This document shows positions 3,409 to 64,000 of a DNA stretch of 64,000 nucleotides, piece by piece. Positions within the stretch are counted from its first letter, which is position 1, and each line of letters begins with the position of its first letter. A program made the position numbers and the translations under genes. This stretch comes from Escherichia coli (lineage in GTDB: Bacteria > Pseudomonadota > Gammaproteobacteria > Enterobacterales > Enterobacteriaceae). The notes beneath the pieces were generated by a model. It had not been told where the DNA came from. It searched no databases and saw only the letters and a program-made list of their open reading frames with translations. The stretch is taken from assembly GCF_044324785.1 (NCBI RefSeq), contig NZ_CP172127.1; one strand, written 5' to 3'.

Positions 3409-4341
3409 TTAGTTTTCCAGTACTCGTGCGCCCGCCGTATCCAGCCGGCAAATATGAACAAAACCTTCCTGATTTTGCAGGTAGTTATTACCCAACCAGT
3501 CGGCAACGCGCTGGGCGGTATCCGGCTTGTCACACAGAGCGAACAAGGTCGGGCCGGAGCCGGAGATACCGCTCGCTACCGCGCCGATTTCCGCGACCGC
3601 CTGCCGCGCCTGCCGGAAACCAGGCAGTAACCGTTCACGGTAGGGTTCAGCGATAACATCTTTCATCAGCTTCGCGGCAAGCTCAGGCTGACGGGAATAG
3701 CAGGCGTGAATGAAGCCTGCCAGATGTCGCCCGTGCGCAATGCAATCCTGGCGGCGATACTGCGCCGGTAAAATAGCCCTGGCTTCTGCCGTCGAGACTT
3801 TAATCCCCGGATACGCCAGCACCCACAGCCACTCATCAAACCCTGGCACTTGCTGGCTGATGATGTCGTTTTCTTCGATCATCAACTGCATACCACCAAG
3901 AAAACACGGTGCCACGTTGTCGTAATGAATGCTGCCGGAGATACGCCCTTCCAGCTCGCCCATCAAAGCCAGCAAACGGGTGTCATTAAGCGGCTTGCCG
4001 CAGTGTTCATTCATCGCCATCAGCGCCGCGACCACTGAGCAGGCGCTGGAGCCTAAGCCCGAGCCGATTGGCATATTCTTTTCCAGAGTCATCGCCACTG
4101 GAATTTGCTTACCCAGCTCCTGGCAAAAACGCTCCCAGCACTGATAAACGATATTTTCCCGAGGTTCTGACGGCAGCTTATCGGCAAAGCGTCCGAGGTT
4201 ATTGAGACTGAATGTCTCTGCCGCCTCAACCGTGACTACATCTCCGAGCAATGCACCATCAACGGGTGTCACCGCCGCCCCGAGCACATCAAACCCGACG
4301 CTCATATTGGCACTGGAAGCCGGGGCATAAACTTTAACCAT
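3409..4341 (-). CDS. thrB: Homoserine kinase
   Basis: ORF track 310 aa, [24 protein letters not shown]... Confidence 0.97.
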
Positions 4342-57393: not shown

Positions 57394-57531
57394 GATTCAC
57401 CGCTCCTTTTATTTTATGACTTTCAGATATCGTCGAATTTATAAGAGCGCCTGAATTTACCCATAAAATATGCGGATGATCACGCATAAAAATGTTTTAA
57501 ATCGGTTTTTAATGCCGGACTGGAGGGAAGA

Positions 57532-58437
57532 ATGAGTCGTTCGCAGAATTTACGTCATAACGTCATAAATCAGGTGATTGAAGATATGGCGAGGGGCAAT
57601 ATTCCTTCTCCGCTGCCTTCACAAAGTGGGCTGGCAGAAATGTATAACATCAGTCGCACTACGGTACGCCACATACTCCAGCATTTAAGCGCATGTGGCG
57701 TGCTCACCCTGGTGGGGAAAAATTATGTTATCGCCCGCAAACCCGAACAGAACGATGGATTTGATTGCATCACGGCCTCGCTGAAAGAGCAAAACCGTCT
57801 TTTCGAGCAGGCATTTTTCACCATGATTAACCTGCGCCAGTTACGCGCGGGAGAAAGCTTTTCCGAACTTCAGCTGGCGCGAGCGGCAGGCGTCAGTCCG
57901 GTAGTAGTACGAGAATATCTTTTGAAATTCGGTCGTTATAATCTTATTCAAAGCGAAAAGCGCGGCCAGTGGAGCATGAAGCAGTTCGATCAATCCTACG
58001 CCGAGCAACTGTTTGAGCTACGCGAAATGCTCGAAACACATTCCCTGCAACACTTTCTCAACCTTCCCGATGACGATCCCCGCTGGTTGCAGGCGAAAAC
58101 CATGCTCGAACGTCACAGGACATTGCGCGACAGCATTGGCAGCAACTTTCGGATGTTTTCTCAATTAGACCGTGATTTTCATGCCATGCTGTTATCCGCT
58201 GCTGACAACATCTTTTTTAATCAATCACTTGAAATTATCTCGGTGATCTTTCATTTTCACTATCAATGGGATGAAAGCGATCTCAAGCAGCGCAATATCA
58301 TTGCTGTTGATGAGCATATGACCATTCTCAGCGCCCTGATTTGCCGTAGCGATTTAGATGCAATAACGGCATTGCGAAACCATCTGGATACCGCCAAACA
58401 ATCAATGATTCGTTCCATCAGGCAACATCACCGATAA
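57532..58437 (+). CDS. lgoR: GntR-family regulator of L-galactonate catabolism
   Basis: ORF track 301 aa; N-terminal wHTH and C-terminal FCD-like domain; divergent from lgoD. Confidence 0.88.
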   Translation: MSRSQNLRHNVINQVIEDMARGNIPSPLPSQSGLAEMYNISRTTVRHILQHLSACGVLTLVGKNYVIARKPEQNDGFDCITASLKEQNRLFEQAFFTMINLRQLRAGESFSELQLARAAGVSPVVVREYLLKFGRYNLIQSEKRGQWSMKQFDQSYAEQLFELREMLETHSLQHFLNLPDDDPRWLQAKTMLERHRTLRDSIGSNFRMFSQLDRDFHAMLLSAADNIFFNQSLEIISVIFHFHYQWDESDLKQRNIIAVDEHMTILSALICRSDLDAITALRNHLDTAKQSMIRSIRQHHR

Positions 58438-58607
58438 ATTAAGTACAGATTAAAAACATTGATTCTTGGTTTATATCACTATGTTGTATTAATGCAGTAT
58501 TAATCCAGGCGATTGTTCTGCCTATAAGGAAATACATAGGGAATAAACGATGCTGGAAGTATTACTCTCAGCCATCATTTAACTCCCTATTACTGGTAGC
58601 GATAAAA

Positions 58608-60260
58608 TTATCGGCTATCCATGATTAACGTTTCCAGCACATCTAATTCACTGACTATTTTTGCCAGTGTTTCATCACTGACTTCTTGCCGTGCACGCAT
58701 CTGGTAAATAGCCGCACGCCTGGCATTTAACGCTGCCAGATTAAATGTTCTTTCCAGCTTCGCGCGCTGCATATGTAAAGAATTATCATTTTCCGACATA
58801 TCATCTTCGCTACGCCGCATATAACCGATAACTCTGGCCCCTGTTTCCATAATCAACTCGTTGTCGAGGTTTTCTGTACTGGTGCGTAGCAAACGTTGCT
58901 CAGTCTTTTGCACACTGAGTATGGCCATTTTGGCCATAAACAGATCGGCAGCTTCCTCTTCTTTTTGCCGGTTATCGCTGAAAATGCCCACATTTTTCCC
59001 CAGTAGTAACGGCAGAATAATAATGCCGCAAACCAGCGAAAAGAGGATCACACCTGTGGCGAGAAATACCAGTAAGTAACGCCCGGGAAAAGATGTGCCA
59101 TCCGGCAGCAATAACGGGATAGAAAGCACCCCCGCAAGCGTGATGGCTCCGCGCACCCCCGCAAAGGTCGCCAGCAGCATATGACGCGTTTTATATCCAG
59201 CAAACAGCATCGGATGTTTGCCGGGTCGTTTACGGCTATACAGACGCATCAGCCAAAGCCAGCCCAAGCGCACAACCATTAACGCCAGGTAGATCCAAAT
59301 GACATCAAGGAGCAGCGATCCGGTGTCTACCAGTGGATCGTTTTCTGCACGGATCAGTGATTCCGTAATAATGCCCGGCAGTTGTAAGCCTAAAATCAGA
59401 AACACCATGCCGTTAAAGACATATTCAAGCATCGACCAGCTACTTTTAGCTTTAATTCTCAGGCGAATAGGCGCGTGGTGGACTACGCCAATGCGACTGG
59501 TTGTTAACCCCGCGGCGACAGCGGCAAGAATGCCAGATAAGCCAAAATGTTCCGCAACCAGATAAACAATAAACGGCAACAGAAGCATCAATACAATCTG
59601 AATGGAAGGTTCATCGTGAGCATATCGACTGATCAACAGCAGCCCTTTGCCATATAACCAGGTAACAGCGATCCCCACGGCAATACCGCCCAACGCAACG
59701 ACAAAAAACGCAATGGTTGCGCCATGAACGCTGAATTCCATCGTTCCCATCGTCACTGCAACAGCAAATTTCAACGCCACCAAGCCGGAAGCATCATTCA
59801 TCAACGCTTCGCCTTCGAGCACTTCCTGGATGTTTTTGCTGATACGCCCTTTCCCGACAATCCCCAGCAACGCCACGGCATCGGTAGGCGACAACACGGC
59901 GGCTAATGCGAAAGCAGCGATGAGCGGCACATTCGGTAAGAGTAAATGAATCACATAGCCGACACCAAAAATAGTGATTAGCACCAACACAAGCGCCAGG
60001 CTGACAATTTCCCGACTGTGCTTGATCAATTCTTTAGGTTGTATTTTTGAGCTTTCAGCAAACAACAAGGGGGGTATAAACAATAAGAGAAAAAGTTCAG
60101 GATTGAATTCCACATGCAGACCAAATATGGGCTGGGCCAGTATAGCGCCAGCGGCAATCTGGATTAAAGGAAGTGGTATCTGAACAGGAGACAGACGCGT
60201 AAGCACGCTGGTTAATGATACTACCAACGTAAGAATTAAAATTGTTAAAAGTATTTCCAT
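58608..60260 (-). CDS. CPA1-family Na+(K+)/H+ antiporter (NhaP-type) with C-terminal cytoplasmic domain
   Basis: ORF track 58608..60281; multi-TM; CPA1 signatures AVLSPTDAVALLGIV and EGEALMNDASGLVALKF; start may be 60281 or 60260. Confidence 0.85.
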   Translation of the reverse strand: MEILLTILILTLVVSLTSVLTRLSPVQIPLPLIQIAAGAILAQPIFGLHVEFNPELFLLLFIPPLLFAESSKIQPKELIKHSREIVSLALVLVLITIFGVGYVIHLLLPNVPLIAAFALAAVLSPTDAVALLGIVGKGRISKNIQEVLEGEALMNDASGLVALKFAVAVTMGTMEFSVHGATIAFFVVALGGIAVGIAVTWLYGKGLLLISRYAHDEPSIQIVLMLLLPFIVYLVAEHFGLSGILAAVAAGLTTSRIGVVHHAPIRLRIKAKSSWSMLEYVFNGMVFLILGLQLPGIITESLIRAENDPLVDTGSLLLDVIWIYLALMVVRLGWLWLMRLYSRKRPGKHPMLFAGYKTRHMLLATFAGVRGAITLAGVLSIPLLLPDGTSFPGRYLLVFLATGVILFSLVCGIIILPLLLGKNVGIFSDNRQKEEEAADLFMAKMAILSVQKTEQRLLRTSTENLDNELIMETGARVIGYMRRSEDDMSENDNSLHMQRAKLERTFNLAALNARRAAIYQMRARQEVSDETLAKIVSELDVLETLIMDSR

Positions 60261-60940
60261 ATAATAAACAGGCTTCCTCATTCATAAATAATGGATATTA
60301 TTAATTTAACTTCATAAAAAGCGCCCTGGTTAGCACTTAACGTTAATCATTAATCACAGCGTTCACTCACATGCTCAGGAGGAAACCAGTGAGATGAGTT
60401 TTCCCGTTGATAACAAATTCACCATGTGAATATTTACTACCTTTAACCGTTGTAACGAATCATCCGTTACTCTTTGATCTCCTTGCCGAACAAGTTGTTT
60501 AGTGAATGATGGCTTTCTTTTAACGTCAGCATGAATTATACGTTCAGCAAATGTATTAAATCAGCACTAAATAAATTTAATGGATACCACCATTCTGCGT
60601 CAACACTTAGTTTTTATCTGTAAAAATAGCCGCAGCCAAATTAATGCTTTTATTTTTAATAAATCATCAACCGAATAAGAGATCTTATCAGCGGTAACTA
60701 AACTCATCAGTGGGTGTTCCTTGTAACGTCATACATTACATAACTTTAAGATATACAATCAAAAAATGCATTAAAAACCGATTAAAAGCAGCAAAGTATT
60801 ACCCGGTGCACGAATTTATGACACATTTGCAGCCATTCCGCTATTCACTGACTACTTTTCAGTAATGACTGCTTTTTCATAAGGTTTCACTCCCGACAAC
60901 AATGTTGGAGTTTTATTTCCTTAGCATGGAGTAAGTAAAG

Positions 60941-61912
60941 ATGAGCAAAATAATAGCGATGCTAATTACTGTCAGTACCCTTTTTTTACCGTCAATAATC
61001 CAGGCAAAACCTATTTCGATAAAAGTTGCCTATGAAAATAACCCTGGAGAACCCCTGGATGTGGTCATGCGTTACTGGGCAGACCTATTAAATAAAAAAA
61101 GTAATGGCGAAATAACACTTGCGCTCTATCCAAGTTCCCAATTGGGCTCAAAACAGGATGTCACCGAGCAAGCCATGATGGGCATGAATGTCATAACCTT
61201 GAGTGATGTGGCCTTTCTTGCCGATTATGAACCCGATTTGGGTATTTTGTTTGGACCGTATCTGACTGACGATCCGCAAAAACTGTTCAAAATATATGAA
61301 AGCGACTGGTTTAAACAAAAAAATGAAAGTCTGAAGAAAAAGGGAATTCATGTGGTAATGAATAATTATCTCTATGGCACTCGACAGATTATTTCGAAAA
61401 AACCCATTCGCACTGTTGACGATCTCGCAGGCTTAAAAATTCGTGTTCCTAATAACGTCATGCAAATAAAAGCCATTCAGGCGATGGGGGCAACACCAAC
61501 TCCCATGCCATTAGGCGAAGTTTATCCCGCATTAACCCAGGGCGTTATTGACGGCGTAGAAAACCCAATTTCAGTGCTGCAAGGGCAAAAACTGTATGAG
61601 CAGGCAAGATATCTGACAATGGTTAACTACCTGACAAATACCTCAGTATGGATAGGTGGTGAAGCCTTCTTTAGCACCCTTTCACCAGAACAACTGGAGA
61701 TGATCCACCAGACCGGCTATGAAGCGGGTGTCTATAGCCAGAAACTCACTCTTGAACGTGATGCCGAAATGTTGAAAACCATGCAGGCAGCGGGCGTCGA
61801 AGTGATCTATCCCGATACTGGACCATTCCAGAAGAAAGCACGCGAAGTTTACTCTCAATTCCCGGAATGGACACCAGGTCTGTACGAAACCATTCAACAG
61901 CAACTGCAATAA
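60941..61912 (+). CDS. TRAP transporter substrate-binding protein (DctP family)
   Basis: ORF track 323 aa with signal peptide; GGAG RBS upstream; first of three co-oriented genes with the DctP/DctQ/DctM size pattern. Confidence 0.8.
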   Translation: MSKIIAMLITVSTLFLPSIIQAKPISIKVAYENNPGEPLDVVMRYWADLLNKKSNGEITLALYPSSQLGSKQDVTEQAMMGMNVITLSDVAFLADYEPDLGILFGPYLTDDPQKLFKIYESDWFKQKNESLKKKGIHVVMNNYLYGTRQIISKKPIRTVDDLAGLKIRVPNNVMQIKAIQAMGATPTPMPLGEVYPALTQGVIDGVENPISVLQGQKLYEQARYLTMVNYLTNTSVWIGGEAFFSTLSPEQLEMIHQTGYEAGVYSQKLTLERDAEMLKTMQAAGVEVIYPDTGPFQKKAREVYSQFPEWTPGLYETIQQQLQ

Positions 61913-61975
61913 GCATTAATGCTCAGCGTCCTGCCTCATCTCTCTTAGGCAGGACACGCACTAACAGGAGGTTTC

Positions 61976-62449
61976 ATGCGTCTTTTTGGCAAAGTGGCAG
62001 AATTTAGTGCTGCCTTTGCGCTATTCGTTCTGGTTGTGATGACAATTGGAGCGGTATTTATGCGTTATTTCATCGGCCAACCGCTTCAATGGACAGAAGA
62101 AATGTCGGGAATGCTGATGATTTGGGTGGTGATGTTAGGTGGAGTAGTGGCGGAACGTGACAGGGCGCACCTGACCATTCCCTTCCTGATGGAGATGCTT
62201 CCAGGCAAGCTCAGGCGTGTTATTGCAGTACTGGTCGCCGTTCTCTCCATCGCACTGCTGCTGTATATGGCCTGGCTGGGCTACCGACTAGCCGAAATGG
62301 CGCAGTTTAAAGTGACACAAATTCTGAAGGTTTCCTGGTTCTGGATCGATCTGGCGGTCCCTGTCGGTGCACTGGCAACGGCTATTTATACCCTCTACTG
62401 GTTAATACACGATATAAAACAATCCGATAGCGGAGACAAAATGCAATGA
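61976..62449 (+). CDS. TRAP transporter small permease (DctQ family)
   Basis: ORF track 157 aa, four predicted TM helices; overlaps the next gene by 4 nt. Confidence 0.8.
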   Translation: MRLFGKVAEFSAAFALFVLVVMTIGAVFMRYFIGQPLQWTEEMSGMLMIWVVMLGGVVAERDRAHLTIPFLMEMLPGKLRRVIAVLVAVLSIALLLYMAWLGYRLAEMAQFKVTQILKVSWFWIDLAVPVGALATAIYTLYWLIHDIKQSDSGDKMQ

Positions 62450-63717
62450 GTTGGTTATTGATTATTCCGCTAATGATCGTCTGTTTGTTTCTCAACATTC
62501 GGGTCTATCTGGCGATGTTTATTGGCATCATCGCTTACTTTTTATTCTTCTCCAGCGTACCGATTGAAATTGCCGTGCAAAGACTGATCGCGCCAACGCA
62601 AAGCCCATCATTGCTGGCAATTCCGTTTTTTATCTTGCTCGGCACACTAATGAGCTACACCGGCATTGCCGAACGCATCCTGCACATTGCCAATGTTCTG
62701 GTGGGGAAAATGCGCGGCGGACTGGGCGTGGCAAACATTCTCGTCAGCACCATGATGGGCGGCGTCAGCGCCTCTAACCTTGCTGACGCGGCGATGCTGT
62801 CGCGCATGATGGTGCCGGAGATGGAGCGTAAAGGCTACAATCGCGCGTTTGCCGCCGCCATTACCGCTGGTGGCTCGTTAGTCACCCCGATCATACCGCC
62901 GGGAATAGCCCTGATTATTTACGGTCTGGTTGCCGACGTCTCTATCGGAAAAATGTTTATCGCCGGACTGGTACCTGGTTTGCTATGCGCAGTCGTATTG
63001 ATGTTTACCGTCTACCTGGTCGCCCGCAAAACTAACGCCAAACCCTCGCGTGAAAGCTGGCCTACGGGCAAAGAGGTGGTGTTCTCGCTGGGACAGGCCT
63101 GGCCTGCGCTGTTCCTCATTTTTGCTGTGGTGGGTGGTATTCGCGCTAACATTTTCACCCCAACAGAAGCAGGCGCAGCAGCGGTGTTAATCGTGCTGGC
63201 GATTGGCTTTTTTATCTATCGTGAAATGCGGATTTCTCATGTCGTCAAAGCATTGGGCGAAACGGCACGCGCTACCGCATCGGTGATGCTGGTAATCATG
63301 GCCAGCGCCGCGTTGGGATGGATTTTCTCAATGGAACATGCTGGTGTCGCAGTGGCGAATTTTGTGACTTCGCTGACCGAAAATAAATATATGTTCCTGT
63401 TGATTATCAACATATTGCTGCTGACGCTGGGGATGTTTCTTGAAGGAAACGCCATTTTGCTGATCCTGGTACCACTATTAAAACCGGTGGTCGAACACTT
63501 TGGCATCGATCCGGTGCATTTTGGCATCATCATGATCTTCAACCTGTCGATTGGCGCATTCACGCCACCGGTAGGTACCGTGATGCTGCTGGTATGTAAC
63601 ATCACGCAAGTTTCGGTGGGAAATTTCTTTAAACAATCCCTACCCCTACTGGCGGCTCTCCTGTTAATGCTAATGCTGGTGACATATATCCCGGCGATTT
63701 CACTGTTCCTGGTTTAA
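62446..63717 (+). CDS. TRAP transporter large permease (DctM family)
   Basis: ORF track 423 aa, highly hydrophobic, about 12 TM helices. Confidence 0.85.
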   Translation: MSWLLIIPLMIVCLFLNIRVYLAMFIGIIAYFLFFSSVPIEIAVQRLIAPTQSPSLLAIPFFILLGTLMSYTGIAERILHIANVLVGKMRGGLGVANILVSTMMGGVSASNLADAAMLSRMMVPEMERKGYNRAFAAAITAGGSLVTPIIPPGIALIIYGLVADVSIGKMFIAGLVPGLLCAVVLMFTVYLVARKTNAKPSRESWPTGKEVVFSLGQAWPALFLIFAVVGGIRANIFTPTEAGAAAVLIVLAIGFFIYREMRISHVVKALGETARATASVMLVIMASAALGWIFSMEHAGVAVANFVTSLTENKYMFLLIINILLLTLGMFLEGNAILLILVPLLKPVVEHFGIDPVHFGIIMIFNLSIGAFTPPVGTVMLLVCNITQVSVGNFFKQSLPLLAALLLMLMLVTYIPAISLFLV

Positions 63718-63759
63718 TAATAAAAACGCCGGATGAAATACTCATCCGGCGTCATTGCG

Positions 63760-64000
63760 TTAAAACGTTTCCCAGTTCTCCTCGCTATCTGCCACAGCCA
63801 TTTTACGCGGCGTAGCTGGCGTCACGGTTTTTACCACAGCCGATGTTTCACGCTGATGTTGCTGAATCCGGAACACTGCCACAGCTTCGGTCAGGCGACT
63901 GGCCTGCTCTTCCAGCGCGGCGGCGGCGGCGGCAGATTCTTCCACCAGCGCGGCGTTCTGTTGAGTTACCCGGTCCATCTCAGCAACCGCTAAGCCAACC
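63760..64000 (-). CDS. tsr: Methyl-accepting chemotaxis protein Tsr, C-terminal part (N-terminus beyond the window end)
   Basis: ORF track 63760..63978 ends ...[18 protein letters not shown], the NWETF pentapeptide of a high-abundance chemoreceptor. Confidence 0.9.

Follow-up and report, generated by a model that had tools for sequence, protein, structure and literature searches.

The window analysed here, a stretch of 64,000 nucleotides of the chromosome of Escherichia coli (RefSeq contig NZ_CP172127.1), contains the L-galactonate (lgo) locus with the gene order opgB, lgoD (minus strand), lgoR (plus), a gene for a Na+/H+ antiporter (minus), a long AT-rich spacer, the dctP-dctQ-dctM genes of a tripartite ATP-independent periplasmic (TRAP) transporter (plus) and tsr (minus). 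The spacer, which extends over 680 bp (60261-60940) between the two divergent transport units, is the subject of this analysis. On its left lies the antiporter gene (58608-60260), which encodes a CPA1 family protein (TIGR00831, 526 bits) of 550 amino acids that begins with MEILLTIL... from a start codon at 60260-60258, the same start as in RefSeq. On its right lies the TRAP operon (60941-63717), with dctP at 60941-61912, dctQ at 61976-62449 and dctM at 62446-63717. At the counterpart position of K-12, lgoR is followed by lgoT, the gene for an L-galactonate transporter that belongs to the major facilitator superfamily (MFS), and from around 63752, the 3' end of tsr, the homology with K-12 picks up again. 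The window carries a variant of the lgo locus in which the dctPQM genes stand in place of the lgoT of K-12; its LgoR is 87% identical to the K-12 protein and its LgoD 94%.

The explanation that we favor, with a probability of roughly 0.78, is that the spacer constitutes a non-coding, composite and divergent control region of the lgo locus, and that the open reading frame (ORF) of 11 codons lying within it, which had been proposed to be a leader peptide or the remnant of a displaced gene, has no function. It is an ordinary regulatory region, with its patchwork origin and a candidate lgo operator as its only notable properties. The coordinates and the marked AT-richness given in the original prediction were both confirmed: the spacer has a guanine plus cytosine (GC) content of 34.6% against 51.6% for the window, and only 0.6% of all 680-bp windows are equally AT-rich, which is well beyond chance. 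RefSeq annotates no feature in this gap, either in strain N3 or in the O26 strain 11368. The spacer of E. coli N3 is 100% identical to that of the window and is embedded in the same order of lgoD, lgoR, antiporter, TRAP genes and tsr.

Among 5426 complete E. coli genomes, a distant blastn search found the spacer in 859, once per genome and at a single chromosomal place, while dctP is carried by 866 of them (~16%); carriers of the TRAP type include B2 pathogens (UTI89) and non-O157 enterohemorrhagic E. coli (O26). The spacer alleles fall into a B1-type class, at least 98% identical (strains of O26, O103 and O145), a B2-type class of 690 bp and ~94% identity (UTI89, E2348/69 and CE10; 601 of the 859 genomes), and a rare N50-type class which is alignable in patches only. 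A further distant lineage, L077 (Escherichia sp. E4742 type), was recovered via the antiporter protein. Our statements on conservation refer to an alignment of seven spacer alleles representing three independent Escherichia lineages, those of the window, N50 and L077. Between the B1-type and B2-type classes, the coding DNA of dctP is ~98.7% identical, as against 93-94% for the spacer.

The lgo box and the composite origin of the spacer

The architecture of the locus can be read from a sequence of 21 nt, hereafter called the lgo box, which has the form ATTAAAAAC-NN-ATTAAAAAC-A: two 9-mers arranged as a direct repeat, 11 bp apart, followed by A. When up to three mismatches are allowed, the 64 kb of the window contain exactly three matches, compared with 0.02 expected, and all of them lie within the lgo locus. 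Copy A (ATTAAAAACCGATTTAAAACA; 57493-57513, minus strand) is situated in the divergent lgoD/lgoR spacer, 19 bp before the ATG of lgoR, and is kept in K-12 and Citrobacter. Copy B (ATTAAGTACAGATTAAAAACA; 58438-58458, plus strand) directly follows the stop codon of lgoR and shares 20 of its 21 positions with the box of K-12, while copy C (ATTAAAAACCGATTAAAAGCA; 60770-60790, plus strand) lies 150 bp upstream of dctP, where it forms the candidate operator of the lgo regulon. In ~700 kb of compared loci, the box was confined to the lgo positions of Escherichia and Citrobacter, apart from a single occurrence in front of the Affinibrenneria orthologue of dctP.

Copies B and C form a direct repeat 2332 bp apart (81% identical), and it is precisely at these copies that the resemblance to other lgo loci is interrupted. 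From lgoR onward the sequence is K-12-like up to and including copy B, where it breaks off after ...AAAAACA; it resumes, in a form similar to both K-12 and Citrobacter, with copy C followed by GCAAAGTATTACCCGGTGCACG... The block common to the spacers of the window, K-12 and Citrobacter starts right after the lgoR stop codon in the latter two and at 60769/60770 in the window. The original prediction had pointed to the upstream region of K-12 lgoT as a useful comparison, and homology is indeed found there, covering 60769-60819 (82% over 51 bp). Hence, copies B and C flank a putative inserted cassette of 2311 bp (58459-60769; boundaries ambiguous by one box length), which comprises the antiporter gene, ~150 bp of 3' flank with a hairpin and ~509 bp of the gene's own upstream DNA. 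Neither the lgoR-dctPQM locus of Citrobacter nor the lgoR-lgoT locus of K-12 possesses this cassette. Since the box-bracketed antiporter is absent from both of these loci, 60261-60769 would belong to the cassette and 60770-60940 to the native control region of the lgo transporter. The junctions thus argue strongly for a spacer composed from two sources, of which the left one arrived together with the antiporter. The left junction, right after ...AAAAACA, is identical in all three Escherichia lineages; given that the junctions are common to these lineages, the insertion event must be old.

The antiporter is the only gene of the cassette, within which there are no transposase, integrase or terminal inverted repeats. 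The distant blastn search of the 5426 E. coli genomes found a second copy neither of the cassette nor of the left 508 bp of the spacer, and the origin of this DNA from a repeat or mobile element was consequently ruled out, as it occupies one place per genome. A mobile element generating a target-site duplication also failed as a model, the flanking repeats being 21 nt long and 81% identical. Between the convergent lgoR and antiporter genes there is a hairpin (58540-58580; GATGCTGG...CTCAGCCATC, then ATTTA) that is kept in N50 and L077; it would belong to the cassette and probably terminates transcription from both sides.

Candidate promoters and operator

Phylogenetic footprinting across the three Escherichia lineages reveals conserved islands at 60261-60300, 60343-60372, 60549-60606, 60735-60768 and 60769-60940, which are 97-100% identical to UTI89 and 64-85% identical to the distant lineages. 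The island adjacent to the antiporter (60261-60300) is its translation-initiation region on the minus strand, with a Shine-Dalgarno (SD) sequence, GAGGAAG, that occupies 60279-60273 and is separated by 12 nt from the ATG (60260); the island is 100% identical in UTI89 and 80% identical in both N50 and L077. The island at 60343-60372 contains tandem heptads, TTAATCA TTAATCA in the window and TTAATCG TTAATCG in N50, and may represent a regulator site in the antiporter leader. Further upstream lies the best candidate promoter for the antiporter on the minus strand (60574-60603), composed of a -35 element TTGACG (60603-60598), an 18-nt spacer and a -10 element TAAATT (60579-60574), with a score of 9/12. 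Its two hexamers are invariant in all seven alleles, even if the DNA between them is ~50% diverged and measures 17 nt in L077. The antiporter would be transcribed leftward from this TTGACG-N18-TAAATT site, which, taken as the promoter, implies a 5' leader of ~300 nt.

In the opposite direction, the candidate promoter for dctPQM (60730-60759, plus strand) has the -35 element CATACA (60730-60735), an 18-nt spacer and the -10 element TACAAT (60754-60759); it scores 8/12, with a weak -35, and TACAAT alone is invariant across lineages. The operon would be transcribed rightward either from this weak promoter or from one located within the conserved block after the box. The predicted start of the former is near 60766, so that the lgo box would extend over roughly +4 to +24. 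The minus-strand site and the plus-strand TACAAT both have unchanged positions in the window, N50 and L077 lineages. The previous description of the spacer as a divergent control region, serving the antiporter on the minus strand and the TRAP genes on the plus strand, is supported, and the promoter-like sites of the spacer, which rank as candidates, point both ways and keep their position across lineages.

Copy C of the box is contiguous with a shared block, GCAAAGTATTACCCGGTGCACGAATTTATGAC (60791-60822, plus strand), versions of which are present upstream of K-12 lgoT and Citrobacter dctP; it therefore belongs to the ancestral control module of the lgo transporter. Over box and block together (60769-60822), identity amounts to 83-85% in the distant lineages of Escherichia as well. 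The remainder (60823-60940, plus strand) is a TRAP-specific leader, partly common to Citrobacter but not to K-12, containing a weak hairpin, CCGACAACAATGTTGG, with a T-run (60893-60918), and then the SD sequence of dctP, GGAG, at 60928-60931.

Two further points deserve mention. Ten base pairs that the other lineages possess, as TTGACAATTT in UTI89 and as TTATCAATTT in N50 and L077, are missing from the window (B1-type) allele at 60628/60629. The 10-mer of UTI89 provides a perfect plus-strand -35 element, TTGACA, 18 nt before CAAATT and back-to-back with the minus-strand TTGACG site, so that B2 strains may have a distal rightward promoter that the window allele would have lost. We also considered the pairing of an anti-SD sequence, CCUCCU, in the antiporter leader with the SD of the antiporter, and dropped it because CCUCCU is not kept in N50 or L077.

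Which factor would then recognize the lgo box? No match to the CRP consensus (up to two mismatches) is present in the spacer, and no match to a UxuR/ExuR-like palindrome (up to three mismatches) in the window. The box itself shows the distribution of a regulon element, for it lies upstream of the transporter gene as well as in the lgoD/lgoR spacer, and K-12 and Citrobacter, too, have a box at both of these places. We infer from these positions that it is a candidate operator bound by the pathway regulator, most likely LgoR, because it precedes a transporter of either type and lies in the regulator's own divergent promoter region. The published evidence leads in the same direction: YjjM/LgoR has been described as the pathway regulator and the lgo genes are all induced on L-galactonate (bioRxiv 10.64898/2026.05.20.726482), while lgoRT and lgoD form divergent, co-induced operons whose region was not selected by UxuR alone in genomic systematic evolution of ligands by exponential enrichment (SELEX) (PMC5934670). 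Transcription of dctPQM would thus be controlled, most likely by LgoR, at the box 60770-60790, and the regulon would respond jointly to L-galactonate, given that the same box is found in the lgoD/lgoR spacer. The three positions in the window, together with the matching positions in K-12 and Citrobacter, offer a candidate operator for the still uncharacterised LgoR.

The surroundings of the box are not uniform among lgo loci. Within the lgoD/lgoR spacer (57394-57531), K-12 and Citrobacter have TTTGTGAAA(A/C)C...GCGCA/ACGCA beside the box, a stretch resembling a CRP half-site, in place of which the window and N50 alleles carry ATATGCGGATGATCACGCA; the regulator LgoR and its own promoter region differ between loci of the TRAP type and those of the lgoT type. 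Related arrays occur also in two other genera. Edaphovirga cremea (L062, ~3630-3700) and Affinibrenneria salicis (L010, 3730-3760) have three to six 9-mers of the form AT(T/A)AAAA(A/G/T)C, spaced every ~11 bp, upstream of dctP orthologues (81-83% amino acid identity), with neither lgoR nor lgoD within 4 kb. The lack of lgoR near these arrays implies that the factor reading them may not be LgoR, or else that LgoR is encoded elsewhere in those genomes.

Alternative explanations and the mini-ORF

Cation-sensing riboswitches occur upstream of cation transporter genes, and the candidate promoter of the antiporter implies a long leader that would include two of the conserved islands (60261-60300 and 60343-60372). 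One could accordingly imagine that the spacer encodes a structured regulatory RNA, either a riboswitch or thermosensor in the ~300-nt antiporter leader or a small RNA, and that the islands are elements of this RNA. We consider this improbable on several grounds. A scan of 59800-61400 with Rfam 15 (E up to 1) returned mir-9465 as its sole match; with 18.8 bits, where the gathering score is 63, and E = 0.96, this is noise. The antiporter leader folds with a z-score of -1.49, equaled by 7 of 100 shuffled sequences, and the dctP leader is unremarkable in this respect (z = -0.36). Moreover, the middle of the antiporter leader cannot be aligned between lineages, and the leaders of the 77%-identical antiporters of Klebsiella sp. 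I138, Limnobaculum and Edaphovirga have nothing conserved with that of the window.

Slightly less credible still is the possibility that the left part of the spacer is a decayed gene, be it the 5' end of a displaced lgoT or a regulator that once lay between the antiporter and its neighbor. A gap of 680 bp is unusually long for an intergenic region of E. coli, and upstream of the antiporter relatives there are likewise 640-750 bp of non-coding DNA, as might be left behind by a gene that was lost; however, no trace of such a gene emerged from the searches with LgoT and the K-12 locus, from Pfam or from the comparison of alleles. K-12 LgoT produced only noise by tblastn against 58400-64000 (E of at least 0.46), and blastn with the K-12 tsr-lgoT-lgoR region matched the box region and tsr, and nothing else. 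Pfam has no convincing match for the spacer's ten longest open frames (28-61 amino acids), the best E value being 0.12, and none of the spacer ORFs of at least 10 amino acids has a counterpart in N50 or L077. The composition of the left spacer, with 33.5% GC, is also that of intergenic rather than coding DNA.

The mini-ORF that had drawn attention to the spacer requires a closer look. The AGGAGG motif (60377-60382, plus strand) is present as originally described, separated by 11 nt from an ORF of 11 codons at 60394-60429 (ATG AGT TTT CCC GTT GAT AAC AAA TTC ACC ATG TGA, encoding MSFPVDNKFTM). Could this be a genuine leader peptide or small protein, produced from a short rightward transcript and regulating the antiporter or the TRAP operon? 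The perfect AGGAGG speaks in its favor, as do the intact ORFs of O26, RM9872 and UTI89 and the presence of a promoter-like TAAACA-16-AATAAT (60265-60292, plus strand) and a terminator-like hairpin (60452-60470), which could frame a transcript of ~180 nt. The configuration is also rare. After first-order Markov resampling of the spacer, the combination of AGGAGG, a start codon 4-13 nt downstream and an ORF of at least 10 codons arose in ~2% of the resampled spacers. Nevertheless, the 64-kb window contains five such configurations, of which one alone (dctQ) corresponds to a listed gene; the configuration is unusual for one spacer, yet expected many times per genome, and is not significant at genome scale.

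It is the comparison of alleles that makes a functional mini-ORF the least probable of these alternatives. AGGAGG is degraded to AGAAGG in UTI89, CE10 and L078, which represent the B2-type class (90-95% identity; 601 out of 859 genomes); the start codon has become ATA in CE10; and most substitutions alter the amino acid, with P4Q, T10I and M11T as the replacements among close alleles. The segment 60373-60432 is the least conserved and fastest evolving of the spacer, being 43-45% identical to N50 and L077 and 86.7% identical to UTI89, to which the spacer as a whole shows 94% and dctP 98.7% identity. Likewise, for a 71-bp query around the mini-ORF, 546 of 856 genomes reach no more than 80-90% identity. 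N50 and L077 keep the flanking regulatory islands, yet their mini-ORF region is unalignable and lacks both the start codon and the subsequent hairpin (60452-60470). The mini-ORF therefore fails as a small gene: start, frame and ribosome-binding site are not kept in relatives, and its sequence is not more conserved than the surrounding non-coding DNA. It fails also as part of an attenuator, since it lies 511-547 bp ahead of dctP and runs antisense to the antiporter gene, a bad location for the leader of either, and the weak hairpin is absent from N50 and L077. The 11 nt between SD and ATG exceed the optimum. A function restricted to the B1-type lineage has nothing arguing for it. In sum, the alignments indicate that AGGAGG and the 11 codons after it are almost certainly a fortuitous, functionless product of fast-evolving AT-rich DNA, and neither of the roles previously suggested for the mini-ORF is supported. 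This provides a word of caution, for a perfect AGGAGG with its ATG can fall in the fastest-evolving part of AT-rich intergenic DNA.

Our interpretation of the spacer as a composite divergent control region needs to be qualified with respect to several points that weigh against it. As regards its origin, the flanking boxes differ at 4 of 21 positions, so a simple target-site duplication is not proven, and recombination between pre-existing boxes would yield the same picture. As regards the operator, GntR/FCD regulators usually bind palindromes, and a direct-repeat operator is atypical for them; box-like phased repeats precede the dctP orthologues of Edaphovirga and Affinibrenneria, which have no lgoR within 4 kb; and the box could be recognized by a different factor or work through an intrinsic bend of the DNA. 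Concerning the promoters, the plus-strand -35 is poor and the background of AT-rich DNA is high, with six promoter-like sites against 3.8 expected, and the promoter and operator assignments derive from consensus matching and phylogenetic footprinting over only three independent Escherichia lineages. Finally, the mini-ORF and its SD are intact in the B1-type alleles (~255 genomes), which leaves a small probability to a function restricted to that lineage.

The transporter exchange and known systems

In evolutionary terms, the locus documents a clear exchange of transporters within E. coli: K-12 uses the MFS protein LgoT, while the strains considered here have a TRAP system and a dedicated Na+/H+ antiporter. 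The DctP of the window is closest to the solved TRAP binding proteins 4ovt and 4o8m, and TRAP systems specific for L-galactonate/L-fuconate have been reported from lgoD loci (PMC5507952). Another TRAP operon, a paralogue with DctP 72-73% identical, is present in E. coli SCPM-O-B-8794 (L011), E. albertii (L012) and E. whittamii (L014), where it adjoins a dehydrogenase 34-36% identical to LgoD and thus constitutes a distinct sugar-acid locus of some Escherichia.

The next-nearest relatives of the antiporter have ~59% identity and are presumably YjcE orthologues; we also take its N-terminus to resemble that of K-12 YjcE. The E. coli contig JADDTD010000016.1 (L076, 6001-7653) has a mosaic antiporter gene, of which the first ~850 nt are 60-75% identical to the gene of the window, with ghxP-soxRS upstream, whereas the part from nt ~880 is 99-100% identical, with lgoR-lgoD downstream. 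Assuming that ghxP-soxRS represents the neighborhood of yjcE in K-12, this mosaic has the appearance of a rearrangement of the chromosome in which yjcE recombined with its paralogue at the lgo locus.

Antiporters of 77% identity are divergent from unrelated TRAP dctPQM genes in Klebsiella sp. I138 (L074, 4236-7650) and Limnobaculum xujianqingii (L080, 3188-6650), across AT-rich spacers of 703-751 bp, with a GntR/FCD regulator alongside and a DctM of 27% identity. Neither nucleotide similarity nor any motif links the spacer of the window to those beside the 77%-identical antiporters, be it in Klebsiella sp. I138, Limnobaculum, Edaphovirga or a metagenome contig. Many TRAP transporters are Na+-coupled, and a Na+ extruder beside TRAP genes is therefore a plausible functional pairing; its recurrence suggests functional Na+ cycling, in which the antiporter would expel the Na+ co-transported by the TRAP system. 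A bolder proposal, which we advance tentatively and regard as rather doubtful, is that the phased direct repeat is an atypical, non-palindromic operator of LgoR and that its flanking duplication records an insertion or recombination event at the operator, which wired the antiporter beside a Na+-coupled TRAP transporter for L-galactonate. If this were true, the way in which the antiporter subfamily recurs opposite unrelated TRAP genes, in Klebsiella sp. I138 as in Limnobaculum, would suggest that antiporter and TRAP transporter form a functional module of general occurrence.

How does the composite control region that we favor compare with known systems? With the leader peptides and small ORFs that precede bacterial transporter or biosynthetic operons it has in common a short ORF, a strong SD and a long 5' intergenic region. 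In contrast to them, the mini-ORF is unconserved, adjoins neither structural gene and is antisense to the nearer one, and it has no run of regulatory codons and no terminator or antiterminator conserved across alleles. The divergent sigma-70 promoter regions of many GntR-regulated sugar-acid regulons, which contain a local operator for a repressor or activator, are similarly AT-rich and have oppositely oriented promoter-like sites; an operator-like element common to the spacer and to the upstream region of the regulator gene would allow autoregulation. Here, however, the two halves would have separate origins, the TRAP half alone has the box, and the box is a phased direct repeat.

Two lgo loci without the cassette also lend themselves to comparison. 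The locus of Citrobacter amalonaticus, whose orthologous TRAP operon was found by a search with DctP, has lgoD, lgoR and dctPQM orthologous to those of the window (83-94% amino acid identity), a perfect box, ATTAAAAACACATTAAAAACA, after the lgoR stop codon and a leader that can be aligned down to the SD of dctP. It differs in having a spacer of ~180 bp between lgoR and dctPQM, with no antiporter and no counterpart of 60261-60769. The K-12 lgoR-lgoT region, which is the internal control region of the lgoRT operon, also has the 21-nt box directly after the lgoR stop codon and upstream of the pathway transporter, and in both K-12 and the window the box is followed by GCAAA(C/G)TATTA..GGTGCACG..TTTAT. 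The K-12 region is 214 bp long, leads to the MFS gene lgoT and has no similarity to the window beyond the 51-bp block, while in the window the box is duplicated, its copies are separated by the 2.3-kb antiporter cassette, and dctP lies downstream. The mini-ORF aside, the spacer would be a standard divergent promoter region in which the patchwork of two histories has remained visible.

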